This document shows positions 3,685-29,001 of a stretch of 51,199 nucleotides of DNA, one piece after another. Below the pieces are notes generated by a model that was given only the letters and a program-made list of their open reading frames with translations, was not told the origin of the DNA and made no database searches. The stretch is from assembly GCA_903911305.1 (NCBI GenBank), contig CAIWDB010000529.1, positions 1 through 51,199 of the forward strand, given 5' to 3'. Source of the DNA: an uncultured Methylococcaceae bacterium. GTDB lineage: Bacteria > Pseudomonadota > Gammaproteobacteria > Methylococcales > Methylococcaceae. A program made the translations under genes and the position numbers. Numbering within the stretch: position 1 is the first letter of the stretch; the number at the start of each line of letters is the position of its first letter.

Positions 3685-3727
3685 CAGTATTTATTCTACT
3701 TATACACTCTTGAGTGACTTCATCCTT

Positions 3728-5389: not shown

Positions 5390-5437
5390 ACCATACCGCT
5401 ACCCGTAACCAGTTTTCTGTCGAGCTTATTCCTACCA

Positions 5438-10966: not shown

Positions 10967-11045
10967 TTGGACGGGGTTAGGCAAGCATCGGCCGGATGGC
11001 ACAACTGCACACCCGTCAAAAGTTTTCGACAAGTTCGGTTGAACC

Positions 11046-11342: not shown

Positions 11343-11733
11343 GGCTCACCTCAAGTTATCAATAAATTTAGCATACGGTTAGGTAAAGAAAGAAAACGCA
11401 CGCTGCTGAAATTAGATGTATATGTTTTATTTTCAGCACAAAATATTAGAGGTATTCCATGAGTGAACAGAATCCAAATGGGTAAGCAACTTTGCAAACT
11501 TAAACCCGAGGTTCATTGTTCAAACTATCACTTTTTCCGGGTTTTAATTAATTGACAAAGCCATGAAAGCGAAGTTCCGAAACAACGCCATCGTGACCGA
11601 CCTCTTGCCCATTTATAACAACGATCCAGTCGGTAGAACGAATTTCTCCTACACACGGATTGTTGATGCCTTGCAGCAATCGAGATTATGGCTAACAATC
11701 TCAATATGGGAGAAATCTAGTGGCTGATGTCGG

Positions 11734-11786
11734 TGTATGATATTAGCCACTGATGTTACGCAGCGGCCTAAGATTTGGAGCGTCAA
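11734..11786 (+). repeat. copy A of a short dispersed repeat (core ctgatgttacgcaGcggcctaAgAtttggagcgtcaa)
   Basis: The 37-nt core at 11750..11786 matches 40806..40841 in the same orientation, with 3 substitutions and 1 indel. Weaker similarity extends upstream (tgtatga...actgatgtt). Confidence 0.55.
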
Positions 11787-11927
11787 GGGTTGATGACAGA
11801 GCGAACACGAAATTAAATTGCAACAGATGTATGGTTTTCCATAGGCGAGGAAAGGTACAACAGGCTGGGTGGGCCGGGTGATAGCGGTTTCCCCATGTTT
11901 CCACATTAAATATTTTGTCTAAGGTTC

Positions 11928-14900: not shown

Positions 14901-16328
14901 GTCCTTGAGCCGGGAGTCAAGGTTGCCATTGCCAAAGACAAATCCAACAACTTTGCCACCGCCCTCAAACCCCAACGGGCCACCGTACCCACACCAGCGC
15001 CAGCAAAGCTTGAAGAAGTTGCCACATCGGATAAAAAACCAAAGCCGGGGAAAACTGCCACCCCTGCTTCAAAACCTTTTCCGGTCAAGGTTGAGCGCGT
15101 TCGCCTGGACGATGGCATCATCGACTTTAGCGATTTGAGCTTGGTGATTCCTTTCGCCACCCGTGTGCATGACTTCGATGGAATGGCGACCGACATATCC
15201 ACCGCGCCCAATAGTCGCACCACGCTCAAATTTGCCGGGCGAGTGGAGGAGTTTGGCGAGGCCAAAGTGGATGGAACGCTGGTCCCATCTTCTTTCAAAA
15301 CCTTTAGCGATGTCAAAGTGATTTTCCGCAACGTTGAAATGTCCTCGCTTTCCCCCTATAGCGCCACTTTCGCAGGCCGCAAAATCACCTCTGGCAAGCT
15401 AAGTTTGGACTTATTGTACAAAATCGAAAACAGCAAACTAAAAAGCGAAAACAAAATTCTGTTGGATCAATTCACCTTGGGCGAGCAAGTGGAAAGCCCT
15501 GGCGCCACGTCCCTGCCACTCGATTTGGCCATTGCCATACTGAAGGACGGCGATGGCAAAATCAGCGCAACCGTGCCGATAGAAGGCGATGTTGACAACC
15601 CACAATTTGCCTATGGTTCGGTGGTTTGGGATGCTTTTGTCACCTTGATTAAAACGGCGGTGACCGCCCCATTCCGAGCCATGGGTTCATTGCTGGGAAT
15701 TGAAGCAGGCGAAGATCTAGGCGCAATAATGTTCCCCCCCGGAACCGATAAGGTCACACCCCCGGAACGGGAGAAAATCCAGAAAGTTGCTAAAGCCCTG
15801 GCACAGCGTCCCAAGGTCAAATTATCCTTGCGAGGCGGCTTTGACACCAAGCTGGATGGCGAGGCATTAAAGTCCTTGCGGATTCGACAGGCCGTGGACC
15901 ATAAGTTGGGTAATGATAGCAGCGACGGGGCAGAACCACTGTCCTTCAGCGATGGAAAAACCCAAAAGGCATTGGAAGACTTGGCTAAAGAGCGCGGAGA
16001 GGGTTTTCTCGATCCCGTCCAAGCTGATTTCGAAAAGTCTGCCGGCAGAAAACCGTCCAGAATTGTGGGCATGTCTTCACTATTGGGCCGGGCCAGCGAA
16101 GATCAAGCATTCTATGAGAAAGCCTTCCAACAATTGGTGGAGGCAGAGCCATTGCCAGCCAATGAACTGGAAAACTTAGCTGACCGGCGCATGAAGGCGG
16201 TGCTTAAAGAACTCACTGACCAATCGGGATTCGATAAAGGCCGAGTGGCTTTAGGCAAGGTTGAGTCTGTTTCCGACGGCAAAGACGGCAATGTGCCAAC
16301 CAAAATGGAATTGGGGACGCAGGAATAA
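11928..16328 (+). CDS. giant DUF748-family (AsmA-like clan) envelope protein with an N-terminal membrane anchor
   Basis: 1466 aa. The N-terminal TM segment is LLTGAGILVTYALLGFFLIPFLV. It is followed by FNPFLFKFEVDDFALKE...LVDFELESLFQRAWVFGDLSLEGPKVDLIV. The C-terminal block is LSPYSATFAGRKITSGKLSLDLLYKI...LPLDLAIAILKDGDGKISATVPIEGDVDNPQF. Both match the DUF748 pattern as I recall it. Confidence 0.8.
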   Translation: MKKLPPLASLLKNPWLLTGAGILVTYALLGFFLIPFLVEHYTPSIVNEKIKRQASMGAAHFNPFLFKFEVDDFALKELDGQPILALSHLLVDFELESLFQRAWVFGDLSLEGPKVDLIVDKEGKLNLASIADSLPKSEEPPPPPSPPPRFLLKHLALKDGIVTYTRQGGTKTLSPLNLELGEVSTLPQTNGTNKLDAELDDGGMIHWKGQFSLDPIFADGEFRLEGFKLGSAWKLIHDWLNLSELSGALSLSANYHFSQQKDKTELSIKEIGFSLAKLHMALADEAQPMLDLDAIQLDKAEFDLATHNVKLPSFTIQTGQVKAAIDKQGSMNWQRIMKPEDQTPQPPIASSPPTTPEPKDEATPWKVELGAFKLANIGLAYDDTSSQVPFAATIGNVGLDLGATAEVGVGDPKVGVHGIKLILKDINIAETGPKADPNPLFKLGNIQLDGAEFDLATRSVKLPNLALQTGHIKAAVDGQGDMNWQGIMKHNVQGNQQPASPAPPTPPSDPATKDAPPPWRLELGTLKLSELGIDYTVASSQVPFAASIGDIGLDLSATAEVGAGEPNVTAHGIKLTLKDTKVTETRPNSVPEPMLSLDNFKLEGAELDLAQHSVKLPSWVIEKGMLQVSVDAEERLNWQQLSKPVKANVQVPTPIKSAAKAVVKAAEKNEAKPAPWRLELGAFKLAELGIRYADDSRKRPYLASIGGLGLNFAATAVVGEGEPKAQVNGVNLSVKDIKLNEKGKAVPLMGLDNLEVAQGRLNLDKHDVAIDKITLKGGGVQIQRNADGTISLAEAFAPKAQTTQAATEPPAAKGTTPAAPWHVALKSFGLQGFRLAYTDDTFSSPIAYDVNNIDVNVNNVNYPGKSPLSYNAKLKLKQGGSLSVTGKASSTADSADTKVVADRLNLVPLQPVVAKFAKLNLDSADFSTNLQVGFRQIDAGSSIKATGTLDVGRLLLKEAIGGQRLLSWKNLAVKGIDFGLVPDHLNIKEVHVLEPGVKVAIAKDKSNNFATALKPQRATVPTPAPAKLEEVATSDKKPKPGKTATPASKPFPVKVERVRLDDGIIDFSDLSLVIPFATRVHDFDGMATDISTAPNSRTTLKFAGRVEEFGEAKVDGTLVPSSFKTFSDVKVIFRNVEMSSLSPYSATFAGRKITSGKLSLDLLYKIENSKLKSENKILLDQFTLGEQVESPGATSLPLDLAIAILKDGDGKISATVPIEGDVDNPQFAYGSVVWDAFVTLIKTAVTAPFRAMGSLLGIEAGEDLGAIMFPPGTDKVTPPEREKIQKVAKALAQRPKVKLSLRGGFDTKLDGEALKSLRIRQAVDHKLGNDSSDGAEPLSFSDGKTQKALEDLAKERGEGFLDPVQADFEKSAGRKPSRIVGMSSLLGRASEDQAFYEKAFQQLVEAEPLPANELENLADRRMKAVLKELTDQSGFDKGRVALGKVESVSDGKDGNVPTKMELGTQE
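12794..14500 (+). repeat. four tandem ~150-aa (~450-nt) modules inside the DUF748 gene
   Basis: Module starts are LDLDAIQLDKAEFDLATHNVKLP, FKLGNIQLDGAEFDLATRSVKLP, LSLDNFKLEGAELDLAQHSVKLP and MGLDNLEVAQGRLNLDKHDVAID. Each module continues through a Pro-rich linker and PW(K/R)(V/L)ELG...SSQVPFAA(T/S)IG...GLDL.ATAEVG. Boundaries are approximate. Confidence 0.65.
13471..13480 (+). repeat. C10 homopolymer inside the DUF748 coding sequence
   Basis: gat gcc ccc ccc cct tgg encodes DAPPPW at about codon 515. It is the longest homopolymer I found in the window. Confidence 0.9.
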
Positions 16329-16412: not shown

Positions 16413-18092
16413 TTACTTGGTTTCAGAATGGCTGGCCGCCACACTTGATGCAGAAGAGAGGTTTTCCTTGCTCAACGCCCCCACCATGGCCTGCAAATCG
16501 CCCCCTTTCATGCCGATTTCATTCAATACCGCATCAATGATCGGTTGCTGTGCGCGGTAGGCCAATGCCGCCGATACGGCTTGTTCGGCCAGATTGCTGC
16601 TGGCAGCATGGGCATTCCCGGTTTCGGAAACACCAGCCGAAGGACTGCGATTTAAGCCATCCACTTGCACGATTTTGATGCTGTCGATGTGTTCCATCGG
16701 CTTGACCGAGGCTTCAATGATGGATGGCAAGGCTTCCATGAGTTTCATTTTGATCTGCATCGCGATTTGCTCCGCACCCAGTGTGTTTAATGCGGCATTG
16801 CGCATTTCGATGCCTTTGGCGTCCACTTGATATTGCACTTGTTGCGCATCCGCCTTGATTTTGATGGCGGCAGCGTGGTTGTTCGCCGCGTCTTTTTCGG
16901 CTTCGGCGGCCACGCGGACACCAATGGCTTGCTTCTGCGCCTCTTGCTCGGCAGCGACCAAGGCGATTTGCTTGTCACGCTCGGCAATGGCGACATCTCT
17001 CGCCGTTTTCACCTGTTCTTCGGCACGGGCAGACAAGGCACGAGCTTCGTTGGCTTGTTTTTCCGCTTCGGATTGCGCCTTGGATTTTTCCGCAATCGAA
17101 ATTGCCTTTTCCTGACTGGCTAGGGTCGTGCGTTTTTCTTGTTCAATCTTGGCAACCTGCACGGAAAGATCCGCTTCGATCTGGCGTTGGCGGATGGCGC
17201 GATCCTTTTCCACTTCGGCCTCTTGCACCAAACGCTCGGCGTCGATCTTGGCTTGCTTGGCCTCGCGTTCGCGCTGCGCGGTGATGCTGGCAACCTCGGC
17301 TTTTTGCTGCACATCGCGGGTGGAGACTTCTTGTTGCTGTTGCAAGGTGGCAAAGGTCTGGTCTTTTTCGATGGTGAGCTTGAGTTGGTTGGCTTCGAAA
17401 TTCTTTTTGGCGATGGCAACCGAAGTATCCTGTTCGATTTCATTGCGCTCCCTAGACCGCTGCTGAGTCTGTTGGGTCAGTTTGGTCAAGCCCTCGGCGT
17501 CAAAGGCATTTTGCGGATCGAAAAACTTGATCGGGGTTTGGTCAAGCCGGGTCAAACTGACCGATTCCAGTTCCAGCCCATTTTTCAGCAAATCTTCCGA
17601 TACGGCATTTTGCACCGCTTGAATGAAATCGGCGCGCTTGTCCAGCAGTTGGTGCATACCCATGGAAACCGCCGCAGCACGCAAGGCATCCACAAATTTG
17701 TCTTCCACCAATTCTTTTAGCGAATCCGGGTGCAAAGTCCGCTGGCCCAAGGTTTGTGCCGCATTGGCAACCCCTTCCACGCTAGGAATCACTCGCACAA
17801 AGAATGCCGCCACCGCATCGACGCGCAGACGGTCCAGCGTAATCAAGCTGTCGTTGCCGGAACGCGACACTTCCAGCTTCAGCGTGTTCATATTGATGCT
17901 GACATATTCATGGAACACCGGCAGCATGATCGCGCCACCGTCCATGACGACTTTTTGCCCCCCCAATCCCGTTCGTACAAACGCCAGTTCTTTTGATGAC
18001 CGCCGGTACAGACGGGCGAACACTAAACCGATGACGGCGAAACCGATCAGCAGTACGAAGGCCATTTGCCCTAAACCAAATAAATGTTCCAT
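16413..18092 (-). CDS. yqiK: flotillin-like SPFH/band-7 protein (YqiK type)
   Basis: 559 aa. An N-terminal TM segment and an SPFH core (RRSSKELAFVRTGLGGQKVVMDGGAIMLPVFHEY...) are followed by a long Ala/Glu/Lys/Gln-rich coiled coil (EAKQAKIDAERLVQEAEVEK...), as in flotillins. Confidence 0.85.
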   Translation of the reverse strand: MEHLFGLGQMAFVLLIGFAVIGLVFARLYRRSSKELAFVRTGLGGQKVVMDGGAIMLPVFHEYVSINMNTLKLEVSRSGNDSLITLDRLRVDAVAAFFVRVIPSVEGVANAAQTLGQRTLHPDSLKELVEDKFVDALRAAAVSMGMHQLLDKRADFIQAVQNAVSEDLLKNGLELESVSLTRLDQTPIKFFDPQNAFDAEGLTKLTQQTQQRSRERNEIEQDTSVAIAKKNFEANQLKLTIEKDQTFATLQQQQEVSTRDVQQKAEVASITAQREREAKQAKIDAERLVQEAEVEKDRAIRQRQIEADLSVQVAKIEQEKRTTLASQEKAISIAEKSKAQSEAEKQANEARALSARAEEQVKTARDVAIAERDKQIALVAAEQEAQKQAIGVRVAAEAEKDAANNHAAAIKIKADAQQVQYQVDAKGIEMRNAALNTLGAEQIAMQIKMKLMEALPSIIEASVKPMEHIDSIKIVQVDGLNRSPSAGVSETGNAHAASSNLAEQAVSAALAYRAQQPIIDAVLNEIGMKGGDLQAMVGALSKENLSSASSVAASHSETK

Positions 18093-18197: not shown

Positions 18198-18824
18198 TTA
18201 AAGTAAGTCCGGGCGTGGATTGGCAATTGCCAAGAATCTTGAGCCGGAAATTTGTTTAACCAACAAAACCGAATCGCCAGTGACAAACTCGACGTTGTCG
18301 CCTTCAGGCTCTATATGAATATAAAATGTCTGTCCCTGTTCGCTTTTTACCCGCGCCTGTGCCGGATAATGCATTCTCGCCGTACCGTTAATCACTAGAG
18401 CCACATGCCCCACCAAGGTTTCTAGTAAAACTGCCGAAGTTTCGTCTTTGGGTATCAGCCTGGCAATGAGCTTGCCGGATATCCTAACCATCGGCAATGC
18501 AACGATAAAGGCAACCCCGGAAGACAAAACTGGATTCGGAAACACGCCCAAAAAACCATGGAAGACTAGGTTGAAAGCAAACCCGGCCAAGGCAAATGCA
18601 GTGAGCATGAGGATCAACAGAACCAACATCGGCACTTTGCCAAAGTGCAGCCAACCAAGCCAAGAATCCGGCAATCCGTCATAATGGATCAGGGCTATAT
18701 GGTCGATTGCGCCTGATAGGCTAGCCCCAACAAGCAGTGTGAGGATTTCGACAAGCCCAATTAACACCACCAGAATGACTGCAAAGGTAAAGGGCCAAGA
18801 CTCAGGTGCGATGAATAACTCCAT
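18198..18824 (-). CDS. yqiJ: YqiJ-like membrane protein (DUF1449, NfeD-like C-terminal OB fold)
   Basis: 208 aa. Several TM segments are followed by a soluble C-terminus (GTARMHYPAQARVKSEQGQTFYIHIEPEGDNVEFVTGDSVLLV). It sits immediately upstream of the flotillin gene, as in the yqiJK pair. Confidence 0.7.
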   Translation of the reverse strand: MELFIAPESWPFTFAVILVVLIGLVEILTLLVGASLSGAIDHIALIHYDGLPDSWLGWLHFGKVPMLVLLILMLTAFALAGFAFNLVFHGFLGVFPNPVLSSGVAFIVALPMVRISGKLIARLIPKDETSAVLLETLVGHVALVINGTARMHYPAQARVKSEQGQTFYIHIEPEGDNVEFVTGDSVLLVKQISGSRFLAIANPRPDLL

Positions 18825-18835: not shown

Positions 18836-19513
18836 TCAGCCGTTGTTTTGACCATTAGCCGCTTTTAGCGCCGCAAGACGTTCAGCGATGCGCTTGTTTC
18901 TTTGCAATTCGGCCAGTTCCTTGATCTTAGCCGCATCTTCCACACCGTTTAAACTCAACCCGGAAACGCCCAATTGCCTAGCGAGAACCCGACCGAAAGC
19001 CGCTTCGGCATCTTCGACACGCGAGCGGCGGTCAGACTCGCCATTGGTCTTTACCATCTCGGGCCGGAGAGATTTATTCGCCTGATATTCAACCAAAATC
19101 TGCTCCAATTCCCGCTTTTTGGCAAGCAGGGCCACCATATAACTCACCAACTCCTCGGCTTTTTGATTTTGTTCATCCAGCGACTTCCGCAAAACCGGAA
19201 GATAATCCTCAATATCGGCTTGCCTGCCTATCGCAGCCGAGGCTAAGTCGTCGCGCTGTTCGCTAACGGCAATGTCGATCTGCCCTTTCAATTTGTCATG
19301 CTCATCACTCAATTTGGCTATCTGGGTGGTGACCAAATGTTTGGCCGCCTCGGCTTTTCCAAGATCAACGCGAACTTCGCTGGCGACTTGTTCGATATCG
19401 CGTATGGATTGCGCCATGACAGTGTCAGGGGCAAGTGTTTCGGCTTTGTCGAGGAGTGCGTAAGTGCCTCCGGCAATGATACGAGCCACTCGGGTGGCGA
19501 TGGAGTCTGACAT
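18836..19513 (-). CDS. pspA: PspA/IM30 family protein
   Basis: I prefer Met16 of the track ORF (MSDSIATRVARIIAGGTYALLDKAE...). This removes the overlap with the upstream gene. The protein is an all-helical coiled coil of about 225 aa with the PspA-like N-terminal amphipathic helix. Confidence 0.8.
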   Translation of the reverse strand: MSDSIATRVARIIAGGTYALLDKAETLAPDTVMAQSIRDIEQVASEVRVDLGKAEAAKHLVTTQIAKLSDEHDKLKGQIDIAVSEQRDDLASAAIGRQADIEDYLPVLRKSLDEQNQKAEELVSYMVALLAKKRELEQILVEYQANKSLRPEMVKTNGESDRRSRVEDAEAAFGRVLARQLGVSGLSLNGVEDAAKIKELAELQRNKRIAERLAALKAANGQNNG

Positions 19514-19535
19514 GTTTATCCCCTTATAGGCTGGC

Positions 19536-19898
19536 TTATTTGCGAAAGCCGTATTCAAGCGTAAAAAACTGTGGGCTTAAATCCGCCAAAGGCCCGCGCA
19601 ACTTGTTTAGTTGATCCTCGCTGCCATGAATTTCCAAGCGGGTGAGTTCCGCAATTTTCAATGCCTCCTGCAACAAAGCCCCGACATTGTCCAAATGGGC
19701 CAAAGCCCCTTCGGCATCGGTGTAGCCTTCCCGGCAATGGACAATTTCGCCGTCAAAGCTAAAGCCATAATACAAAGCCTTGGGTTCGATTTTGGTTTTT
19801 TCGACAAATTGCTCGCATAACGCTTTGAATGCCGGTAGTTTGCCTTCATTAACCTTGAAGTAGGGTACGATACTGACGCAAGTGTCTTCAGTGGCCAT
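19536..19898 (-). CDS. ABM-fold (antibiotic-biosynthesis-monooxygenase-like) small protein
   Basis: 120 aa. The pattern VSIVPYFKVNEGKLPAFKALCEQFVEKTKIEPKALYYGFSFDGEIVHCREGYTDAEGALAHL fits the ferredoxin-like ABM/Dabb pattern. It is the first gene of the pspA-yqiJK transcription unit. Confidence 0.55.
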   Translation of the reverse strand: MATEDTCVSIVPYFKVNEGKLPAFKALCEQFVEKTKIEPKALYYGFSFDGEIVHCREGYTDAEGALAHLDNVGALLQEALKIAELTRLEIHGSEDQLNKLRGPLADLSPQFFTLEYGFRK

Positions 19899-20063: not shown

Positions 20064-20897
20064 ATGAATTCTTTTCTAATTACGTTAATTGTTTTCCTAT
20101 GCTGCACATGTGGCATTCTGTTAGGCACTTACATCCGAGTGCAATTGCCAGCACACCATCTAAGTGAAGAGTCCAAGGACATCGTCAAACTTAGCACTGG
20201 CCTGATAGCAACTCTAACCGCCCTGATTCTCGGTCTTTTAGTGGCATCAGCCAATGATACATTCCAATCATTCAATGATGGTTTGGATAAGATTGGCGCC
20301 GATTTGCTTATCATGGATAGGAGTTTGGCCTTTTATGGTCCCGAAGCCAAATTGACTCGGGACGCATTGCGCAAACTGACGGTTGTTGTCTTGATGAACA
20401 ACTGGCCTGATGACCAAGACCAAACGGAAACTCACTTGACCCACGAAGAGTTGGCTGGGTTACCAAACTATTCACAGACAAAACAGTTTGTCCATGGTGG
20501 TGCTTCAGAGGCATTGCGTGGCGCGGACGCTCTCTCGAATATTCAAAACATGCTGCTTAGACTCGAACCAAAAGACAATGCGCAACGCTGGAGGCAAGCA
20601 AGGGCTTTGGAAGTCAGCGGGAGCTTGGCGGAAAAACGCTGGCTGATGGTTGAGCAGTCTCAAAACAACCTTCCAACCCCGTTTTTGGTGGTATTGGTGA
20701 TTTGGCTAGTCATTTTGTTCGTCACCTTTAGCGTGTTTGCGCCTCGTAATAAAACAGTTAGAACGGTATTATTTCTCTGCGCTTTGTCCGTTTCAGGCTC
20801 GGTTTTTCTGATTTTGGAATTGAACAAACCAACCAGCGGACTATTGAAAATTTCTAGTGCGCCCTTGATGAAGGCACTTGATTTGATAGGCAAGTAA
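20064..20897 (+). CDS. DUF4239-like membrane protein
   Basis: 277 aa. The N-terminal TM segment is followed by LSEESKDIVKLSTGLIATLTALILGLLVASANDTF. Two C-terminal TM segments follow. This is the layout I associate with DUF4239. Confidence 0.55.
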   Translation: MNSFLITLIVFLCCTCGILLGTYIRVQLPAHHLSEESKDIVKLSTGLIATLTALILGLLVASANDTFQSFNDGLDKIGADLLIMDRSLAFYGPEAKLTRDALRKLTVVVLMNNWPDDQDQTETHLTHEELAGLPNYSQTKQFVHGGASEALRGADALSNIQNMLLRLEPKDNAQRWRQARALEVSGSLAEKRWLMVEQSQNNLPTPFLVVLVIWLVILFVTFSVFAPRNKTVRTVLFLCALSVSGSVFLILELNKPTSGLLKISSAPLMKALDLIGK

Positions 20898-21186
20898 AAC
20901 CAAATAGCGAGTGTCGGAGTGCAAGGCTTGCCTTGCCTTTAGGACTTTGTTAGTCGTATGACGGCTGATTTAGCTCACACCTTTCACTCTTCCTCCACGA
21001 AAATTCTGTTAGCCACAGCACGGGGATAAACAGAGTCAACGGGTGATAAAAACCACCCAAGCACACGCATAACCACTCTCGACTAAATACTGCGCTGTTG
21101 TGGTTCAACTATGGTTCATTTCGACCAACAACCAAAGATGCAGGCAATGATATTTTGCAAAACATGGATTATTATGATAAATTTTT

Positions 21187-21202
21187 ATGGCATTAAATAT
21201 GC
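21187..21202 (+). promoter_or_regulatory. candidate sigma-54 (-24/-12) promoter in the leader of the hyf-like operon
   Basis: The sequence is TGGCAttaaataTGCt, with GG and GC separated by exactly 10 nt. It sits in a 640-nt AT-rich intergenic region, 138 nt upstream of the small ORF at 21339 and 340 nt upstream of ATG 21541. Confidence 0.35.
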
Positions 21203-21338
21203 TTTTATTATTCAATCCAAGAAAAATAGACAAATAATTAACTTACATCTTGCCTAATCGCCGTTTTACCAATCCTTCGGCTATTATGCTTTCTTGATTT
21301 CTCGCCTTAATTTATGACAACTATTCACTAGGATTACA

Positions 21339-21458
21339 ATGAAATTTATTGACATGCTTTTAAAAAGCGCATCCAACGACCCGGATTTTCTGGAAGGGTT
21401 TTCAACAGTGGTTTTAACAGGGTTTATGGCGTTGTTGGTAATCATTTTGTTCATTTGA
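21339..21458 (+). CDS. possible 39-aa single-TM peptide upstream of the hyf-like operon
   Basis: My own translation is MKFIDMLLKSASNDPDFLEGFSTVVLTGFMALLVIILFI*. It has a polar N-terminus and a hydrophobic C-terminal helix. It is below the ORF-track length cut-off and has no strong RBS, so the call is speculative. Confidence 0.25.
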   Translation: MKFIDMLLKSASNDPDFLEGFSTVVLTGFMALLVIILFI

Positions 21459-21540: not shown

Positions 21541-23655
21541 ATGTCATTGTTTTTTGCATACTTGTCCGTGGCCGCCTCTTTGGCGTCTGGAGTGGCGGCT
21601 TTGGCTACCGATCATCGTGTGATGCTTGATCGTTTTGCAGATTTGATATTGCGGCGATGGCCAAGGCAACAAGATCAAGCGGGGGTTCTCTTTTCCGAGC
21701 GTCAGTTTGCCGAAAGCCATCGCAACAGCTTGTTCGTCTTACTGGGTATTTCTGGAGTTTTTGCGATACTGGCAGGCGCTACGGCAATGCTCAACGGTTC
21801 GGTGACTACCGACACTTTGCCATTAGGACTGCCTTGGCTGCATTGGCATATTCGCTTCGACGCACTTTCGGGCTTCTTTTTTATGATTATCGGCATGCCA
21901 CTTTGTGCCGTCAGCCTATTCGGGCCGGGTTATGTTCAAGAATTTGAGCATGGCAAGCATTCACTCACCGTGCTAGGTCTATTCACTGGCCTTTTCGTGG
22001 CTGGCATGGAATTGGTTTTGCTTGCCGATGATGCTTTTTTCTTCGTCATCGCTTGGGAATTAATGTCGGTCTCAAGTTACTTTCTAGTGGCTTTCCAACA
22101 CGAGCAAGCCAGCAACCGTCGAGCGGCCTTTTTGTATCTGCTGATGGCAGTGATCGGAGCCATGGCGATCATCCTCGCCTTTGGTGTGTTGGCGGGATTC
22201 AGCGGTGGATTGCTGTTTGATGATTTTCGTTCCGTCAAATTAAGCCCAGTCTGGGCCAGCGTGGCATTTGTGCTAGGACTGTTTGGCTTTGGAATGAAGG
22301 CGGGCTTAGTGCCGTTACATGCGTGGCTGCCCGAAGCCCATCCAGCAGCACCCGCCCATGTCTCCGCACTCATGAGCGGGGTCATGTTGAAAGTCGCCGT
22401 TTATGGTTTCATCCGTTTCACCTTCGACCTTCTTGATCAAGTGATGTGGGAATGGGGAGGTGTGGTGTTGGTGATTGGGGCTGGTTCGACCCTGTTAGGT
22501 GTGTTATATGCGATGATGCAGCATGACATAAAACGCTTGCTCGCCTATCACTCCGTGGAAAATATCGGCATCATTTTCATAGGCCTGGGTTTATGTATAA
22601 TCTATGTGAGTGAAGGGAAAAGCCAAATCGCCGCCCTAGCCATGGTGGCAGCCTTATTCCACTGCTTAAACCATGCCCTGTTTAAAAGCCTGCTATTCCT
22701 TGGCGCTGGCTCGATCATTCACCAAACTCACGAGCAGAACATTGAACACTTGGGGGGCTTGATCCACCGGTTGCCAAAGTTGTCGGTCGTGTTTTTGATC
22801 GGCACCTTGAGTATTGCCGCCTTACCGCCCTTTAACGGATTTGTCTCGGAATGGCTGACTTTTCAGGCAGCGCTCCAAGCGGGGGGGATTCATAGCGGCG
22901 TATTACGCAGCTTAGTTCCCGCCAGTGCATCCTTGCTGGCCTTGGCTGGCGCTTTGACGGCCACCTGCTTTGTCAAATTGTACGGCGTGGTTTTCTTAGG
23001 CCTACCCCGCACCCGCCATGCCGCCAACTGCCATGAATCCCCTCATCGCGGTATGCTGGCCGGACCTGCCATGCTCGCCGGACTTTGTGTCTTACTAGGC
23101 ATTTTTCCAACACCTATGATTGAAAGTTTGAACATTGTCACGGGACAACTGTTGGGCGATGCTTTGCCGGGCGCTTCCGCATTAGGCTGGTTGTGGCTAA
23201 CGCCAGTCGCACCTGAAGTGGCATCCTATTCCCCATCACTAGTGCTGGTGGGCATCCTGCTGACTGGCTGGCTTTGCTATCGACTCATTTACCGACGTGG
23301 TGGATTGGAAGCCCGACGGGCAGAACCTTGGGATTGCGGATTCGGTGGATTGAATTCGCACATGCAATATACCGCCACCGCCTTTAGCATGCCCATCCGC
23401 CGTATTTTTGAACCCGTCTTTGTCGTTGAAGAAACCATTTCGGAACAAAAGTCCGGACCAGATGGGTTCAACACCGATACCCTTCATTACCAATTACGAG
23501 TGTCCGACCTTTCTTGGGGCTATGTTTATCAACCGGTGGCCCAATTGGTCATCACCCTCAGCCGCTGGGTGAGCAGGATACAAACCGGCAACATAAGAAC
23601 CTACATCGCCTATTCGTTCTTTACCTTGCTCATTTTGCTTTGGGGTATTAGTTAA
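21541..23655 (+). CDS. HyfB/HycC-like, NuoL-type antiporter-like membrane subunit
   Basis: 704 aa, polytopic. It has AWELMSVSSYFLVAF (TM5 Glu), GFGMKAGLVPLHAWLPEAHPAAPAHVSALMSGVMLK (TM7 Lys) and the C-terminal EPWDCGFGG block seen in HyfB/HycC. An AGGA RBS lies 7 nt upstream. Confidence 0.88.
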   Translation: MSLFFAYLSVAASLASGVAALATDHRVMLDRFADLILRRWPRQQDQAGVLFSERQFAESHRNSLFVLLGISGVFAILAGATAMLNGSVTTDTLPLGLPWLHWHIRFDALSGFFFMIIGMPLCAVSLFGPGYVQEFEHGKHSLTVLGLFTGLFVAGMELVLLADDAFFFVIAWELMSVSSYFLVAFQHEQASNRRAAFLYLLMAVIGAMAIILAFGVLAGFSGGLLFDDFRSVKLSPVWASVAFVLGLFGFGMKAGLVPLHAWLPEAHPAAPAHVSALMSGVMLKVAVYGFIRFTFDLLDQVMWEWGGVVLVIGAGSTLLGVLYAMMQHDIKRLLAYHSVENIGIIFIGLGLCIIYVSEGKSQIAALAMVAALFHCLNHALFKSLLFLGAGSIIHQTHEQNIEHLGGLIHRLPKLSVVFLIGTLSIAALPPFNGFVSEWLTFQAALQAGGIHSGVLRSLVPASASLLALAGALTATCFVKLYGVVFLGLPRTRHAANCHESPHRGMLAGPAMLAGLCVLLGIFPTPMIESLNIVTGQLLGDALPGASALGWLWLTPVAPEVASYSPSLVLVGILLTGWLCYRLIYRRGGLEARRAEPWDCGFGGLNSHMQYTATAFSMPIRRIFEPVFVVEETISEQKSGPDGFNTDTLHYQLRVSDLSWGYVYQPVAQLVITLSRWVSRIQTGNIRTYIAYSFFTLLILLWGIS

Positions 23656-24599
23656 TGGCTTGGTTACTCGCACTTCTGCAAACCTTATTATTCATTAGTA
23701 GTGCCCCGCTATTGGCTGGATGGCTAAAAAAAGTCAAATGCCGCCTGCAAAATCGCCGGGCACCTTCGATATTTCAACCTTACCGTGACTTGCGCAAATT
23801 GTGGAAGAAAGAACCCATTATTGCGCATCCTGCCTCTTGGATATTCAAGGCCGCACCTTATGTGGTGTTATCGACCACTGTATTGACCGCTTCCATCATC
23901 CCGTTGATCGCGGTCAACCTACCCACAGCGAAAATAGCCGATGTGGTGGTATTGATTGGTTTCTTTGCCTTAGGCCGGTTTTTTCTGGCACTGGCAGGCA
24001 TGGACATAGGCACGGCCTTTGGCGGTATGGGTTCTTCGCGGGAAATGACGGTTTCATCATTGGCCGAACCCGCGATGTTGATGGCAGTGTTCACGCTGGC
24101 AATGAGTGCTTCCACCACAAACCTTTCGGAGGCGATGAAATATGTGCTGGACACTGGCTTAGTACTGCGCCCTTCTTTTATTTTCGCCATGCTCGGCCTA
24201 ATGCTGGTGGCGGTGGCGGAAACCGGACGGATACCCGTGGACAATCCGACCACTCACCTTGAATTGACCATGATCCACGAAGCGATGATCTTGGAATATA
24301 GCGGTCGTTATCTCGGCATGATCGAATGGGCCAGCCAGATTAAACTGATGATATACGGCGTGTTAATTGCCAATATTTTCTTTCCTTGGGGCATCGCACA
24401 AGAATTTACTTTGGAAGCCTTAGGGGTAGGGGCGATGGCCTTGACATTTAAGCTAGTCGTCTTGACCGTATTGCTGAGTTTGACAGAAGTGATATTTGCC
24501 AAAATGCGGGTGTTTCGGGTGCAGGAATATCTTAGTTTTGCTTATCTACTCACCCTTTTGGGAATGTTGAGCCACATTATTTTGGAGGTGCAACACTGA
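23655..24599 (+). CDS. HyfC/HycD-like, NuoH-type membrane subunit
   Basis: 314 aa. It has LQNRRAPSIFQPYRDLRKLWKKE (compare HyfC RRGPGIWQDYRDIHKLFKR) and the TEL...HEAMILEYSG block. Its start overlaps the previous stop (TAATG). Confidence 0.88.
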   Translation: MAWLLALLQTLLFISSAPLLAGWLKKVKCRLQNRRAPSIFQPYRDLRKLWKKEPIIAHPASWIFKAAPYVVLSTTVLTASIIPLIAVNLPTAKIADVVVLIGFFALGRFFLALAGMDIGTAFGGMGSSREMTVSSLAEPAMLMAVFTLAMSASTTNLSEAMKYVLDTGLVLRPSFIFAMLGLMLVAVAETGRIPVDNPTTHLELTMIHEAMILEYSGRYLGMIEWASQIKLMIYGVLIANIFFPWGIAQEFTLEALGVGAMALTFKLVVLTVLLSLTEVIFAKMRVFRVQEYLSFAYLLTLLGMLSHIILEVQH

Positions 24600-25276
24600 T
24601 GGACATTACCCAATTAAGCCATTACCAACAGGCGATCATGCTACTTGCCGCGATGATCGTGCTAACTTCATTCTTGATGTTGGGGCAGTCGCGTTTATTA
24701 CGCCTAGTGTCAATTTTTTCCGTGCAAGGTGTGTTATTGGCGATTACCACGGCACTGGCTGCCGATGTTTTGAATTCCCCGCATCTTTATATATCAGCCT
24801 TATTGACGTTGAGCCTGAAAGGTATATTCATTCCCTTCATGTTGCATCGTTTAGTCGTCAACATGGGCTTGCATCGGGATATGGAAACCTTGAAAAACCC
24901 TGCACGGGTGATGATGGGTGGCACGGGCTTGGTGGTGTTTAGTTATTACGTTTGCCTACCCATCATCAAACTGTCACCGCTGATCACCTTGAACACCATC
25001 GCCATCAGTATGGCCGTGGTGTTGTTGGGCATGTTGCTGATGATTACCCGTCGGCAAGCGGTGGCCCATGTGGTGGGTTTTATGTCCATCGAAAACGGGT
25101 TGTTCTTCGCCGCAGTGGTATCCACCTACGGTATGCCAATGGTGGTTGAATTGGGCATTGCTTTTGACGTGCTGGTGGCTGCCATATTGTTTGGGGTGTT
25201 TTTCTTTCATATTCGCACAAGCATCGACTCCTTGGATGTAGATCAACTTAACCGCTTAAGCGAGGTGGAAAAATGA
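24599..25276 (+). CDS. HyfE-like small membrane subunit
   Basis: 225 aa. The block VGFMSIENGLFFAA...VVELGIAFDVLVAAILFGVFF...LDVDQLNRLSE parallels the HyfE C-terminal region (MENG...ELVEIGIATD...LDVNNLTALKG). It overlaps the previous gene by TGATG. Confidence 0.78.
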   Translation: MDITQLSHYQQAIMLLAAMIVLTSFLMLGQSRLLRLVSIFSVQGVLLAITTALAADVLNSPHLYISALLTLSLKGIFIPFMLHRLVVNMGLHRDMETLKNPARVMMGGTGLVVFSYYVCLPIIKLSPLITLNTIAISMAVVLLGMLLMITRRQAVAHVVGFMSIENGLFFAAVVSTYGMPMVVELGIAFDVLVAAILFGVFFFHIRTSIDSLDVDQLNRLSEVEK

Positions 25277-26739
25277 TTGCCGCCTACCTATTACTGTTTA
25301 TACCTTTGGCGGGTATGTTGATCTTGTCTTGGGTCAATGATAGCCATCAAGCCGGGCGCATCAACATACGTTTCAATACTGTGGCTCTAATTGCCTCGCT
25401 TTGGTTGGCGGTCAATGTGTTACTGCAAGGGCCAATCTTGTCGAATACCCAGATGATTTACATAGACTCATTCAATGTCTATCTGATCGCCTTGACTGCT
25501 TTCGTGGGATTGACCACTTCGATATTCTCTGGACCCTACATGGCCCACGAGCAGGAATTGGGCAAAGTCGGGAAAAAACGGCTACGCCTTTACTACACCA
25601 TGTATCAAGGCTTCATGCTGGCAATGTACTTGGTTTTGACGACCAACAACATGGGCGTGATGTGGGTGGCGATGGAAGGGGCGACGCTTGCCACGGTGTT
25701 GCTAGTTAGCCTTTACCGCACACCGGAATCGGTTGAAGCCGCTTGGAAGTATTTTATCCTCTGTGGTGTCGGCATTGCCCAAGCCTTGTTCGGAACGGTG
25801 TTGCTGTACTTTGCCTCGGAGCAAATTCAAGGCATCCAAGAAAACGCTTTGCTTTGGACGGTTCTTTACAAGAATGCCAATCTGCTCAATCCGAGTGTCA
25901 TGAGTATCGCCTTTGTGTTTTTATTGGTCGGCTACGGCACAAAAATTGGGCTTGTCCCCCTGCATAATTGGTTGCCCGATGCCCACTCCGAAGGACCAAC
26001 CCCGATGTCGGCCATTCTGTCCGGGCTGTTGCTCAATGATGCCCTCTACGCGGTAGTGCGTTGCAAAATGTTAGTGGACGGTTCTTTAGGCAACCATCAG
26101 GCCGGCAATTTGATGATGGGGTTTGGGCTGCTGTCCTTCCTTGTGGCGGTGCTGTTCCTGCACAGGCAACACGACATTAAACGTCTGTTCAGTTATTCCT
26201 CCATTGAACATATGGGGCTAATGACGTTCGCCTTCGGCATCGGCAGCCCTTGGGCCACCTTTGCCGCATTATTTCACATGACGACTCATTCGCTGACCAA
26301 ATCGGCGATTTTCGTCACCGTAGGTTATGCCTCACAATTGGCAAAAACCCAGCGGATGGAAAAAATCCGCGGACTTATTCATACCCAACCTGCCATTGGT
26401 TGGGGTTTGCTGATGGGGACTGTCGCTATTGCAGGATTCCCTCCTTTTGGCGTGTTCGCCAGTGAATTCCTTGTGCTTATCGCCACGATGGACGACTACC
26501 CTTGGCTGACTCCGTTGCTGTTACTCGGGATTGGCATTGCTTTTGCCGGATTGTTTCGTCAAATACAGCCGATGGTATACGGAGATGTGCCACAAGGACA
26601 ATTGCCCATCAAGGCAAACTTATGGCCTGTGATGATTCATCTAGGCATCGTGTTATGCCTAGGGTTGGCCATCCCTTCTTTTTTGGGCAATTGGTTTAAT
26701 CAGGCAACCCAACTCATCTCGGGAAAGCTGCCGTTATGA
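25273..26739 (+). CDS. HyfF-like, NuoM/N-type antiporter-like membrane subunit
   Basis: 488 aa. It has WVAMEGATLATVLLVS (TM5 Glu) and GYGTKIGLVPLHNWLPDAHSEGPTPMSAILSG (TM7 Lys). ATGA overlaps are present at both ends. Confidence 0.88.
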   Translation: MIAAYLLLFIPLAGMLILSWVNDSHQAGRINIRFNTVALIASLWLAVNVLLQGPILSNTQMIYIDSFNVYLIALTAFVGLTTSIFSGPYMAHEQELGKVGKKRLRLYYTMYQGFMLAMYLVLTTNNMGVMWVAMEGATLATVLLVSLYRTPESVEAAWKYFILCGVGIAQALFGTVLLYFASEQIQGIQENALLWTVLYKNANLLNPSVMSIAFVFLLVGYGTKIGLVPLHNWLPDAHSEGPTPMSAILSGLLLNDALYAVVRCKMLVDGSLGNHQAGNLMMGFGLLSFLVAVLFLHRQHDIKRLFSYSSIEHMGLMTFAFGIGSPWATFAALFHMTTHSLTKSAIFVTVGYASQLAKTQRMEKIRGLIHTQPAIGWGLLMGTVAIAGFPPFGVFASEFLVLIATMDDYPWLTPLLLLGIGIAFAGLFRQIQPMVYGDVPQGQLPIKANLWPVMIHLGIVLCLGLAIPSFLGNWFNQATQLISGKLPL

Positions 26740-28355
26740 AAGAGACCAACAAACCATTCGAAGATGAAAAAGATCGCCCTGGCCCTCTGTGGCGGTTTTT
26801 CTTGGAACTCTCCACGATTGGGCTTGATGCTCAGCCCGTAGAGCCTAGCCCTTTGTCACCCGCGCATTTGATGGACATTAAACCCAAGGACTGGGGCAGA
26901 GCGGCAGAATTGGCGAGGGGGCAGTCATGGCGATGGGTGGCGGGTTGGGCTGAAGACGAAGACAGCATGGTTTCCGTTAGCGTCTGCGTTGAACGGCAAG
27001 GCTGCTACATGGTGCTAAGAACGCGGACAAACAGTCAGTCTCCCTCCATACTCTCACATACGCCTTATTTTGCATCGGCCAACCGACCTGAACGGCACAT
27101 GCATGATTTGTTTGGCATTGAGTTTGTCAACCATACCCATCCACAACGGTGGACCCGGCATCAAGCGTGGGACAATGAAACAGCTCCTCTGCGCCATACA
27201 TTCCCCAAGGAAGGCCATCCGCCAAAACAAACACCCCCTGATAAAGACTATCCATTTTTCAAAGCCGAAGGCCACGGTGTTTACGAAATCCCAGTTGGGC
27301 CTGTTCATGCCGGGATCATTGAGCCGGGGCATTTTCGGTTTCATGCCGTAGGCGAGACTTTGCTGCACTTGGAGGAACGTTTGGGTTATGTGCATAAGGG
27401 AATGGAAAAAATTGCCGAAGGTCGGACAGCGGACTCTTTGGCGAGACTGGCCGGTCGGGTTTCAGGTGACACCACAGTGGGTCATGCCTTTGCCGCTTGT
27501 TTGGCGATGGAACGCGCTGCGAATATCGAAGTGCCGCTGCGAGCCTCTTTTATTCGCGGTTTAATGGCCGAACGGGAGCGGGTTGCCAATCATTTGTGGG
27601 ACATGGGGATGATTTGCAACGATGTTGGCTTTGCCTTCGCCTATTACCAGTTTGGTCGGCTTAGGGAGTTATGGCTGCGAGACAATCAAGCCCTATTCGG
27701 ACACAGGCTGCTGATGGACAGGATCATCCCCGGCGGTGTCAAATTCGATGTGTCAACCGAGGCGGTAAATCGCATGAAGGATTCTTTCAAGGGATTGCGA
27801 CGTGAACTGGATCAACTCATCACCATCATCGACCAAAATTCGTCACTTGAAGATCGCCTGGTCACCACCGGACATTTGACACTGGCAGATGCGCAAACAC
27901 TGGGGGTACTTGGGTATGTCGGCCGGTCTAGCGGGCAGACCTTTGACGTGCGCCACGATGCGCCCTATCCACCTTACGACCAATTGGAGGTCAAAGTGCC
28001 AGTGGAAGAACAGGGCGATGTGGCATCCCGCTTTTGGGTCCGTTACAAGGAAACGCGGGTGGCTTTGAAACTGATGGAAAAGCTGCTCGACAAGTTGCCA
28101 GAAGGGGATATTGCCATTGCATGGGTAAATCCGAAAACGGGAGCCGAAGGCTTTGGGGTGGTTGAAGGTTGGCGAGGGGAAATTCTCAGTTATGTGCGAT
28201 TTGGCGAAAACGGTTGCATCAGCCGCTATTACCCACGAGACCCCAGCATAGTCAATTGGCCTGCCTTAGAAAAACTTGTCCTAGGCAATATCGTCCCCGA
28301 CTTTCCCGTTTGCAACAAATCGGTCAATGGATCTTACTCGGGCAACGACTTATAG
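26736..28355 (+). CDS. HyfG/HycE-like fused NuoC-NuoD-type subunit lacking all four [NiFe] cysteine ligands
   Basis: 539 aa. A NuoC-like N-terminal domain is followed by the core IPVGPVHAGIIEPGHFRFHAVGETLLHLEERLGYVHKGMEK. The L1 position reads RVSGDTTVGH (27456..27485) instead of RxCGxCxxxH. The C-terminus reads DFPVCNKSVNGSYSGNDL (28299..28352) instead of D(I/F)P...DPCxxCxDR. Confidence 0.88.
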   Translation: MKETNKPFEDEKDRPGPLWRFFLELSTIGLDAQPVEPSPLSPAHLMDIKPKDWGRAAELARGQSWRWVAGWAEDEDSMVSVSVCVERQGCYMVLRTRTNSQSPSILSHTPYFASANRPERHMHDLFGIEFVNHTHPQRWTRHQAWDNETAPLRHTFPKEGHPPKQTPPDKDYPFFKAEGHGVYEIPVGPVHAGIIEPGHFRFHAVGETLLHLEERLGYVHKGMEKIAEGRTADSLARLAGRVSGDTTVGHAFAACLAMERAANIEVPLRASFIRGLMAERERVANHLWDMGMICNDVGFAFAYYQFGRLRELWLRDNQALFGHRLLMDRIIPGGVKFDVSTEAVNRMKDSFKGLRRELDQLITIIDQNSSLEDRLVTTGHLTLADAQTLGVLGYVGRSSGQTFDVRHDAPYPPYDQLEVKVPVEEQGDVASRFWVRYKETRVALKLMEKLLDKLPEGDIAIAWVNPKTGAEGFGVVEGWRGEILSYVRFGENGCISRYYPRDPSIVNWPALEKLVLGNIVPDFPVCNKSVNGSYSGNDL

Positions 28356-28365
28356 AGGTAATGGG

Positions 28366-28911
28366 ATGTTAGGCATTTATCGAAAAATCTTAACCACGGG
28401 CATGTTGACGGAAAAGTTTGCCAGACACATAAAGAAACCGAAACAGTCCGCCATAGAAATTCGCGAACCGGAAATTGATGCGCTTGGCAATACATTGAAA
28501 TCCACCATTGACAGACGTTTTGCGGGTAGTCTGCATATTCGCCAAGTGGATGCCGGTTCCTGCAATGGGTGCGAGTTGGAAATACATGCACTCAACAATG
28601 TCTATTATGACATTGAGCGTTTCGGTGTACATTTTGTGGCATCGCCCCGCCATGCCGATGTGTTGTTGGTGACTGGGCCGGTTTCCCGCAACATGGAGGA
28701 GGCATTGCGTAGAACCTATGAAGCAACCGCCAATCCGAAATGGGTGATTGCCGTGGGCGACTGCGGGGCATGTGGCGGTGAGTTTGGCGTGTCCTATGCC
28801 AGTTGCGGCGCGGTTTCCAACGTCATCCCAGTCGATGCCGTCATACCCGGATGTCCACCGACACCAGTGGATTTAATGCGGGGCATTTTAGATTTATTCG
28901 CAAAACATTAG
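28366..28911 (+). CDS. HyfI/HycG-like, NuoB-type [4Fe-4S] subunit
   Basis: I prefer ATG 28366 (GAGG RBS, after the upstream stop) over the track start at 28327. The cysteine motifs SCNGCELE, AVGDCGACGG and IPGCPP are retained. Confidence 0.88.
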   Translation: MLGIYRKILTTGMLTEKFARHIKKPKQSAIEIREPEIDALGNTLKSTIDRRFAGSLHIRQVDAGSCNGCELEIHALNNVYYDIERFGVHFVASPRHADVLLVTGPVSRNMEEALRRTYEATANPKWVIAVGDCGACGGEFGVSYASCGAVSNVIPVDAVIPGCPPTPVDLMRGILDLFAKH

Positions 28912-28932: not shown

Positions 28933-29001
28933 CTTCGACAAGTTCAGTGCGGACGGTTTCAGTAAAATCAATCTCTTCCGTTCGTGCTGAGCCTGTCGAA
29001 G
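28933..29001 (+). repeat. REP-like long hairpin immediately 3' of the hyf-like operon
   Basis: The 24-nt arms are 28933..28956 and 28978..29001, with a 21-nt loop. There are 19 Watson-Crick pairs plus 4 positions that are G.U only in the plus-strand RNA, and 1 A.C mismatch. A 12-nt arm core (ttcgacaagttc) recurs at 11025..11036. Confidence 0.55.

Follow-up and report, generated by a model that had tools for sequence, protein, structure and literature searches.

What is the role of a gene cluster that resembles hydrogenase-4 in gene content and gene order, and whose large subunit has lost the ligands of nickel and iron? The question is raised by a six-gene operon at positions 21541-28911 in the DNA of an uncultured Methylococcaceae bacterium (contig CAIWDB010000529.1). 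Below, the window means the full 51,199-nt stretch of this DNA, and all coordinates refer to the window, forward strand. Judging from the sequence, the locus encodes a typical complex of the Ehr (energy-converting hydrogenase related) class; it comes from Hyf/Hyc-type group-4 hydrogenase ancestry and is not a hydrogenase.

The Ehr complexes were reportedly defined by Marreiros et al. in 2013. They are widespread, occurring in methanotrophs, nitrifiers, anaerobic methanotrophic (ANME) archaea and Mycobacterium tuberculosis and reported from candidate phyla as well, and stand at the evolutionary junction of hydrogenases and complex I. In the literature they are described as related to group-4 hydrogenases, as having no Ni/Fe ligands and as being of unknown function (PMC6349859; PMC10284858; PMC6728331). 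Thus the locus adds no new class. What is new is that the nickel-iron (NiFe) pocket is remodelled and conserved rather than lost, that the operon appears to be served by its own sensor and activator and by a promoter with an activator site, and that its operonic link to SulP permeases is recurrent.

The operon and its products

Six open reading frames (ORFs) on the plus strand make up the operon, with the coordinates and lengths of the initial annotation.

21541-23655, plus strand: HyfB/NuoL-like antiporter-type subunit, 704 aa (NCBIfam NF005086, 826 bits, above the cut-off)
23655-24599, plus strand: HyfC/NuoH-like subunit, 314 aa (PF00146, NADHdh)
24599-25276, plus strand: HyfE-like small membrane subunit, 225 aa, about seven helices (hhalign to E. 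coli HyfE)
25273-26739, plus strand: HyfF/NuoM-N-like antiporter-type subunit, 488 aa (NCBIfam NF005045, 777 bits, above the cut-off)
26736-28355, plus strand: fused NuoC+NuoD/HycE-like large subunit, 539 aa (PF00329, PF00346, PF00374)
28366-28911, plus strand: NuoB/HyfI-like small subunit, 181 aa, with four Cys for one [4Fe-4S] cluster (PF01058)

The genes are translationally coupled. The first two junctions are 1-nt overlaps (TAATG at 23655 and TGATG at 24599), and the next two are ATGA overlaps at 25273 and 26736. The last gene is separated by a 10-nt gap, and its ATG at 28366 follows a GAGG Shine-Dalgarno box 7 nt upstream. Because of this box, the start giving a 181-aa small subunit is favoured over that of the 194-aa ORF from 28327. 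The Pfam and NCBIfam domains are Proton_antipo_M (twice), NADHdh, Complex1_30kDa and Complex1_49kDa with a fragment of NiFeSe_Hases, and Oxidored_q6. Compared with E. coli Hyf, all six proteins match their same-letter counterparts best, and the two gene orders agree; the identities are 37% (HyfB), 31% (HyfC), 23% (HyfE), 39% (HyfF), 31% (HyfG) and 40% (HyfI). The ORFs, the domains and the Hyf matches together confirm the gene structure and the subunit identities proposed initially.

The subunits reported as missing are indeed missing from the window. HyfA, HyfH, HyfJ and FocB had no tblastn match in it, and HyfD matched the HyfB- and HyfF-like genes only. The ferredoxin motif CxxCxxCxxxC[PGAS] does not occur in the six frames of the window, and no hyp, hycI or formate dehydrogenase genes were detected by Pfam among its other ORFs of at least 120 aa. 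Within the window, no electron-transfer or maturation genes were found in the same transcription unit.

The large subunit was aligned with E. coli HycE (7z0s_E, E = 2e-62). In this alignment RVCGICGFAH is changed to RVSGDTTVGH and DPCYSCTD to NGSYSGND, so that all four NiFe cysteines are replaced. The protein has neither of the group 4 hydrogenase motifs, L1 (RxCGxCxxxH) and L2 (DPCxxCxx(H/R)). It terminates with ...SGNDL, one residue past the L2-region motif, at the mature cleavage position of NiFe large subunits. There is no C-terminal extension, and therefore no HycI-type cleavage is needed. The alignment thus bears out the initial statement that the loss of the NiFe ligands is incompatible with a formate hydrogenlyase or a conventional group-4 hydrogenase. 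In the alignment with Aquifex NuoCD, the position of the quinone-site Tyr of complex I (R-x-D-Y) is occupied by Gly.

Among 118 homologues from Methylococcales, no variation was seen at R241, S243, G244, D245, C526-N-K-S, N531, S533, Y534, G536, D538 and L539. The hydrogenase-type beta1-beta2 loop GPVHAGIIEPGHFRF, which adjoins the pocket, is invariant in the same set, save V/I at position 190 and two single substitutions. Its proton-relay Glu is kept, and the pocket does not vary at its Ser, Asp, Ser, Tyr, Asp and His. Since the replacement residues are invariant in the 118 homologues, the substitutions are not decay: the NiFe pocket has been remodelled into a different, near-invariant Ser/Asp/Ser/Tyr/Asp pocket.

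The pocket signature SGD...NSYGD recurs across phyla. An exhaustive search of 50%-identity cluster representatives yielded 7200 clusters at E < 1e-3 and 939 at E < 1e-30, and the signature was tallied in the 150 nearest representatives. About 125 of these 150 have [SA]-G-D...N-S-Y-G-D, and about 22 are genuine CGxC...CxxC proteins with 33-40% identity. In a neighbour-joining tree (a rough distance tree rooted on E. coli NuoCD, without bootstrap), the large subunit of the window belongs to a purely Cys-less clade of 49 proteins, which is nested in a larger clade of 97, 98% of them Cys-less; E. coli HyfG falls outside. Phylogeny at this resolution agrees with the initial annotation. The AlphaFold model of the large subunit (predicted local distance difference test, pLDDT, 82; predicted template modelling score, pTM, 0.85) has HycE as its closest fold (template modelling score 0.83), followed by E. 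coli NuoCD (about 0.78).

Two proteins retaining all four NiFe cysteines, P0153 and P0236, nest in an otherwise Cys-less clade of the same tree. Their placement is either a tree artefact or a sign of more than one ligand-loss event.

The iron-sulfur site of the small subunit is conserved. Its motifs CNGCE, GDCGACGG and GCPP align with HycG and MbhJ, the four cluster Cys being at least 90% conserved in 68 homologues. In the membrane arm, the best structural match of the HyfB-like subunit is HycC (7z0s_C, 9e-68). The Glu in transmembrane helix 5 (TM5), Lys in TM7, Lys in TM8, His/Lys in TM11 and Glu in TM12 of this subunit are at least 90% conserved in 62 homologues. The HyfF-like subunit best matches, among PDB entries, the antiporter-like subunits of the membrane-bound sulfane sulfur reductase (MBS) and the membrane-bound hydrogenase (MBH). 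Both antiporter-like subunits conserve the Glu of TM5, the Lys of TM7, the His/Lys of TM11 and the Glu of TM12; at the TM8 Lys position the HyfF-like subunit has Asn, and the same Asn is found in E. coli HyfF. The HyfC/NuoH-like subunit is closest to HycD (7z0s_D, 1.5e-43) and keeps the SRE, AEP, ETGR.P.D and EYSG motifs.

The HyfE-like subunit aligns with E. coli HyfE over 204 columns (hhalign probability 97.6%) and has two invariant intramembrane glutamates, E165 and E184. No solved homologue was found for it by sequence, and its AlphaFold model (pLDDT 52) is too poor for a fold search. The hhalign comparisons with E. coli NuoK and NuoJ were not significant, and a weak PF00420 match on record for two distant HyfE homologues is the sole hint of NuoK. 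The membrane arm thus retains all the charged residues by which complex I, MBH and FHL translocate ions, and the HyfE-like protein is a true HyfE homologue. The apparatus by which a reaction at the NuoD/NuoB/NuoH interface could drive ion translocation therefore looks intact.

These features can be set against the known systems. With hydrogenase-4 (Hyf) of E. coli and Pectobacterium and with formate hydrogenlyase-1 (FHL-1, 7Z0S) there is a one-to-one correspondence of HyfB, C, E, F, G and I, and HycE, HycC, HycD and HycG are the closest structures. However, the window has no NiFe ligands, no HyfA, HyfD, HyfH, HyfJ, FdhF or FocB, and no C-terminal processing extension. Complex I (NDH-1) shares the L-shaped modular core, the NuoB cluster (N2 position), NuoD, NuoH and the Glu/Lys chains of the antiporter-like subunits. 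It differs in having NuoI, NuoA, NuoJ and NuoEFG, all absent from the window, in the Tyr of its quinone site, for which the window protein has Gly, and in the beta1-beta2 loop, which is of the hydrogenase type here. A relation of the HyfE-like subunit to NuoK is not supported by hhalign.

The Pyrococcus MBS/Mbx complex (6U8Y) is also hydrogenase-derived and also has no NiFe site, and its antiporter-like subunits are the best PDB match for the HyfF-like subunit. Among the Cys-less relatives of group-4 hydrogenases it is the only one known to have an assigned activity, the reduction of sulfane sulfur. However, it consists of 13 subunits, including the NuoI-like MbsN and Mrp-type small subunits, and has another pocket signature; its large subunit is a weaker match to the window protein (1e-24) than HycE (2e-62). 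The Ehr class has the same traits as the window operon: clustered genes for NuoB-, NuoC/D-, NuoH-, HyfE- and NuoL/M/N-like subunits, no NiFe cysteines and no NADH module. The assignment to this class, made already in the initial annotation, is borne out by the gene set, the missing NiFe cysteines, the Cys-less clade and the definition in the literature.

Relatives, genomic context and regulation

All relatives of the large subunit at 60-79% identity are from Methylococcales (Methylumidiphilus, Methylogaea, Methylocaldum, Methylococcus, Methylomonas, Methylobacter). Proteins of Candidatus Methylumidiphilus share 92-94% identity with the HyfE-like protein, and the membrane subunits are 85-93% identical to their closest relatives. 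The window DNA has no match in E. coli genomes. To judge by its proteins, the host is a Methylumidiphilus-like methanotroph.

The names given to the relatives are misleading. The Methylococcus capsulatus Bath counterpart, MCA1137-1142, was annotated as formate hydrogenlyase (Ward et al. 2004; PMC517821), and NCBI names the relatives "formate hydrogenlyase" or "NADH-quinone oxidoreductase subunit C". Beyond the 2004 annotation, no literature was found on the locus in Methylumidiphilus or other Methylococcales. Systematic misannotation as "formate hydrogenlyase", "hydrogenase 4" or, in at least one recent study, "group 4f hydrogenase" can mislead the inference of H2 metabolism in methanotrophs.

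Using a simple ORF caller and BLASTP, we surveyed 80 fetched loci related to the operon (L-numbers denote fetched loci). Sixty of these loci extend far enough upstream to be scored, and in 38 of them the operon is directly preceded, on the same strand, by one or two genes for SulP permeases. The gaps between SulP and the operon range from -4 to 342 nt (25 nt in the gene calls of Methylococcus geothermalis). A histidine kinase and an NtrC-type sigma-54 activator often adjoin the operon. A DUF2490 protein, of a putative porin family (TC 1.B.81; PMC4827864), is encoded 3' of the operon in 17 of 48 loci. The Methylococcales version thus differs from other Ehr loci in being a predicted sigma-54 regulon, mostly one transcription unit with one or two SulP genes, then DUF2490 and a two-component system.

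Counterparts of these neighbours are found in the window as a contiguous block at 3710-8370, with a 48-nt gap followed by a 4-nt overlap.

3710-5389, plus strand: SulP/SLC26 anion permease with a STAS domain (PF00916, PF01740)
5438-6973, plus strand: membrane sensor histidine kinase (HisKA, HATPase_c)
6970-8370, plus strand: NtrC-type sigma-54-dependent response regulator (Response_reg, Sigma54_activat, HTH_8)

The SulP protein is 63-67% identical to the operon-adjacent SulP of about 40 loci. The kinase is 46-58% identical to kinases adjoining the operon elsewhere, and the activator is 66-74% identical to regulators adjoining it in other Methylococcales. The trio looks like the usual flanks of the operon, as if the operon had been cut out and set 13 kb downstream; displacement of the partners by this distance sets the window apart from the other loci. 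The initial annotation, which saw no FhlA/HyfR-type regulator in the window and no partner of the complex, was wrong in both respects: a kinase and a sigma-54 activator are encoded at 5438-8370 within an orthologous SulP-kinase-activator trio, and a promoter and an activator site, both conserved, precede the operon.

The regulator at 6970-8370 is probably the activator of the operon. Transcription of hyf is sigma-54-dependent, as is predicted for the window operon, and the AAA+ domain of HyfR matches the window regulator. However, the latter is a response regulator of a two-component system, whereas FhlA and HyfR sense formate. The kinase has two transmembrane helices flanking a periplasmic loop of about 125 residues, and thus the signal is likely to be extracytoplasmic.

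Two candidate regulatory sites were found upstream of the HyfB-like gene.

21102-21118, plus strand: upstream activator site, two GGTKCA hexamers 11 bp apart (GGTTCAactatGGTTCA), 86 nt 5' of the sigma-54 motif
21188-21203, plus strand: sigma-54 (-24/-12) promoter motif TGGCATtaaatATGCT, with GG and GC at the correct spacing

Among 62 scanned loci, 36 have a sigma-54 motif with a score of at least 9 of 11 at the cluster head; the background is 409 matches in 2.77 Mb (1 per 6.8 kb). It is positioned about 40-60 nt 5' of the first SulP gene, or directly 5' of the HyfB-like gene if no SulP gene is adjacent. In a consensus scan of the window alone the motif is not above chance, so the evidence for the promoter is comparative. 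The activator site pattern GGTKCANNNNNGGTTCA (GGTKCA-N5-GGTTCA) occurs once in the window and just three times in 94 fetched loci, in all cases at the equivalent place 5' of the HyfB-like gene (L003, L004, L005). Loci of the Methylobacter type have a related inverted repeat, GGTGCAAAACAACC...GGTTGTTTTGCACC, at -120 to -80, 5' of the promoter. With a half-site matrix derived from it, none of the inverted pairs in the window reached significance (best score 6.0 versus up to 21 in shuffled sequences). It appears that the canonical Methylobacter-type activator site is absent in the window and a clade-specific variant is present instead. We predict that the upstream spacer holds a regulated sigma-54 promoter, followed by a leader of about 325 nt. 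Simple scans for sigma-70 promoters and terminators gave results at chance level, and Rfam had no match in the window.

Beyond Methylococcales, ten distant contexts were examined. A profile of diverse Cys-less large subunits retrieves proteins from Methanoperedens/ANME-2, Nitrospira, Binatia, Verrucomicrobia, Acidobacteriota and others. In Nitrospira-type loci, genes for a kinase and a sigma-54 activator precede the six genes, and one for a type II NADH dehydrogenase (NDH-2) follows them. Methanoperedens-type loci contain the six genes and, between those of the large and small subunits, a gene for a 112-aa HyfH-like protein with two [4Fe-4S] clusters (L085 10572-10910, L087 10587-10925, L093 10683-11021), and then a Usp gene. 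The examined bacterial Ehr loci have no HyfH-like gene; in L086 and L088 the NuoB-like protein is longer, with faint Fer4 matches in L088. The Binatia locus L094 has a NuoB-first order behind an ArsR-type regulator, which we take to be the arrangement of Rv0081-Rv0087 in M. tuberculosis. The M. tuberculosis operon has been treated as Ehr (PMC6728331), and Ehr has been noted in the verrucomicrobial methanotroph Methylacidiphilum (PMC6688271). In the verrucomicrobial locus examined here a SulP-STAS gene lies upstream of the operon. The core would thus be a self-contained unit of six or seven genes, SulP being a lineage-specific addition and the ferredoxin-type input subunit being kept, among the ten contexts, only in archaea.

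In L003 the NuoB-like gene is directly followed, at 10861-16107, by two genes, one for a GltD-like NAD(P)H Fe-S flavoprotein of 547 aa and one for a pyruvate:ferredoxin oxidoreductase of 1199 aa. This pair, seen in one of the 80 loci, is a hint at a ferredoxin-level partner.

Possible functions

The pocket is invariant, the Fe-S cysteines and antiporter residues are conserved and the coupling apparatus looks intact; thus the operon is likely to be functional rather than decayed. Our preferred reading, which is tentative and somewhat short of an even chance, is that the complex couples a redox reaction to the pumping of H+ or Na+, that a signal from outside the cytoplasm induces it, and that in Methylococcales SulP uses the resulting ion gradient for anion transport. 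The signal sensed by the kinase would switch the operon on. A low-potential soluble donor would pass electrons directly to the [4Fe-4S] cluster; in the archaeal relatives the HyfH-like ferredoxin subunit would be used. The remodelled pocket, at the NuoD/NuoB/NuoH interface, would hold a small acceptor (a quinone is the default guess), which the cluster would then reduce and protonate. This reaction would drive the export of H+ or Na+ via the antiporter-like subunits, as in complex I. In Methylococcales the gradient could be used locally by the co-expressed SulP for anion uptake, bicarbonate and formate being the candidates, and the DUF2490 putative porin, which the window does not have, may assist.

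A partial parallel is provided by the cyanobacterial Mnh/Mrp-like complex and by DAB/MpsAB, where a transporter of anions or inorganic carbon has a genetically linked antiporter-type module, which is proposed to generate the ion gradient for it. In Synechocystis the mnh "MRP-like NDH-type" complex is co-regulated with the Na+/HCO3- symporter SbtA, and Na+ extrusion for bicarbonate uptake has tentatively been proposed (PMC4390856). However, these systems have no NuoB/NuoD redox stub, and DAB contains a carbonic-anhydrase-like subunit. The likeness is thus one of mechanism, not of membership.

A bolder version of the pump is rather doubtful. It states that Ehr, SulP and DUF2490 form one sigma-54-controlled machine, a complex-I-like primary pump powering SLC26 uptake of bicarbonate or formate across both membranes. 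If true, this would be a new way to energise SLC26 transport and the first physiological role for a bacterial Ehr complex; in the literature found, no function has been assigned to the six-subunit type, and no link between Ehr and SulP, or this gene context, was found there.

Several observations weigh against the SulP-serving pump. The SulP gene lies 13 kb away from the operon in the window. The sigma-54-like motif 5' of it (CGGCATagattCTGCA at 3669-3684) is weak (8 of 11) and is not accompanied by the clade-specific activator site. DUF2490 was not found in the window, and the SulP link is lineage-specific, with one case among the ten distant loci. No substrate could be assigned to SulP: the protein reaches the cut-off of none of the NCBIfam equivalogs, BicA, DauA and the sulfate permeases among them, and its PDB matches are generic SLC26 proteins. 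The window encodes no NuoI/HyfH subunit that would carry electrons to the cluster. Reduction of quinone is a guess, because the pocket lacks the quinone-site Tyr of complex I. 

One alternative is a pump for acid resistance or pH homeostasis, a stress-induced device that extrudes or consumes protons, with SulP just supplying counter-ions or buffer anions. It overlaps with the SulP-serving pump and differs in purpose. Relevant expression data come from a 2025-26 preprint on Methylocystis sumavensis, where all of a "group 4f hydrogenase" complex, its catalytic subunit having a conserved AARVS motif with Ser in place of Cys, is induced at pH 5 (log2 fold change +4.2 to +4.5, about 20-fold) and no H2 was detected (10.1101/2025.08.29.672306). 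From the motif we infer that this complex is of the same Cys-less type. However, it belongs to an alphaproteobacterium, that is, to another lineage. The predicted extracytoplasmic signal of the kinase would suit such a device, as would the membrane-stress cluster of PspA, YqiJ and flotillin near the operon in the window. However, these neighbours are not conserved in other loci, and the sequence holds nothing specific to pH. We consider this purpose unlikely.

Somewhat less probable still is non-redox vectorial chemistry, in which the motive force drives a reaction in the pocket, for example CO2 hydration, as in DAB or NDH-1MS, and the Fe-S cluster is purely structural. The invariant Ser, Asp, Ser, Tyr, Asp and His of the pocket and the kept proton-relay Glu are compatible with this, as are the absence of an electron-input subunit in the window and the link to SLC26/SulP permeases, some of which are bicarbonate carriers. 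However, no DabA or CupA/B-type carbonic-anhydrase-like domain was found in the operon or among the annotated window ORFs, and the four cluster cysteines are strictly conserved. The ferredoxin-type subunit of the archaeal relatives argues for electron transfer, and the family is not confined to autotrophs.

A true hydrogenase or formate hydrogenlyase, with non-canonical ligands or with partner and maturation proteins encoded elsewhere in the genome, is close to refuted. The "hydrogenase 4 subunit B/F" equivalogs of NCBIfam are above their cut-offs, the NCBI names and the 2004 annotation of MCA1137-1142 point the same way, and HycE is the best match in both sequence and fold. However, the four NiFe cysteines are replaced by residues that are themselves invariant, neither HyfH/HycF, HyfA/HycB nor FdhF is encoded in the window, the large subunit has no C-terminal extension that HycI could remove and lies in a Cys-less clade with E. 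coli HyfG outside, and the related Methylocystis complex gave no detectable H2. Least probable of all is a relic, a decaying hydrogenase operon that has lost its catalytic ligands and electron-input subunits and has no current function: this is contradicted by six intact, translationally coupled frames, by membrane subunits 85-93% identical to their closest relatives, by functional residues and a new pocket near-invariant across hundreds of lineages, by the conserved, predicted dedicated promoter and activator site, and by the strong induction of the relative in Methylocystis.

The Methylococcales with a SulP-linked operon include the genetically tractable methanotrophs Methylococcus and Methylotuvimicrobium, which makes the question of function more testable.

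Surroundings of the operon

The initial annotation had suggested lateral acquisition of the operon, pointing to unusually long and AT-rich flanking regions, a downstream hairpin and broken reading frames. The flanking regions are indeed long, 643 nt with G+C content (GC) 0.39 and 606 nt with GC 0.44. However, they are not unusual, as the seven intergenic regions longer than 400 nt in the window are equally AT-rich (GC 0.38-0.47). Compared with the genes of the 80 related loci, the downstream spacer shows no similarity, and no remnant of DUF2490 or another gene was found in it; thus the broken frames were not upheld. The GC of the operon (0.48-0.53), its GC at third codon positions (0.53-0.62) and its codon-usage distance are within the range of other window genes. 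The operon is present across Methylococcales, and identity tracks taxonomy, so that the suggestion of lateral transfer fails as well. The operon alone is syntenic with the closest relatives. Its position is fluid, and nothing indicates a foreign origin.

The hairpin itself is real. Other features between the SulP block and the end of the downstream spacer are given together with it.

11928-16328, plus strand: DUF748/AsmA-family protein, 1466 aa, probable lipid-transport bridge
16413-18092, minus strand: flotillin
18198-18824, minus strand: YqiJ
18836-19558, minus strand: PspA/IM30
20064-20897, plus strand: bestrophin-like anion-channel-type protein
21339-21458, plus strand: 39-aa hydrophobic small ORF MKFIDMLLKSASNDPDFLEGFSTVVLTGFMALLVIILFI in the leader of about 325 nt, expression uncertain
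28933-29001, no strand assigned: inverted repeat resembling repetitive extragenic palindromic (REP) elements, with 24-nt arms at 28933-28956 and 28978-29001 that are 79% complementary

The flotillin, YqiJ and PspA genes form a membrane-stress set upstream of the operon; this set adjoins the operon in no other locus. The same is true of the bestrophin-like protein, which was considered as a partner and rejected on these grounds. The DUF748/AsmA-family gene lies between the SulP block and the operon.

The small ORF of the leader is 79% identical to an ORF at the same position in L004 and is absent from most other loci. Weak matches to it were seen 3' of the operon in L005 and L006. The right arm of the REP-like repeat is identical (100% over 29 nt) to a sequence 5' of the operon in L004 and is also found in L015 and L008. 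It is probably a dispersed repeat of Methylococcales and not part of the system.

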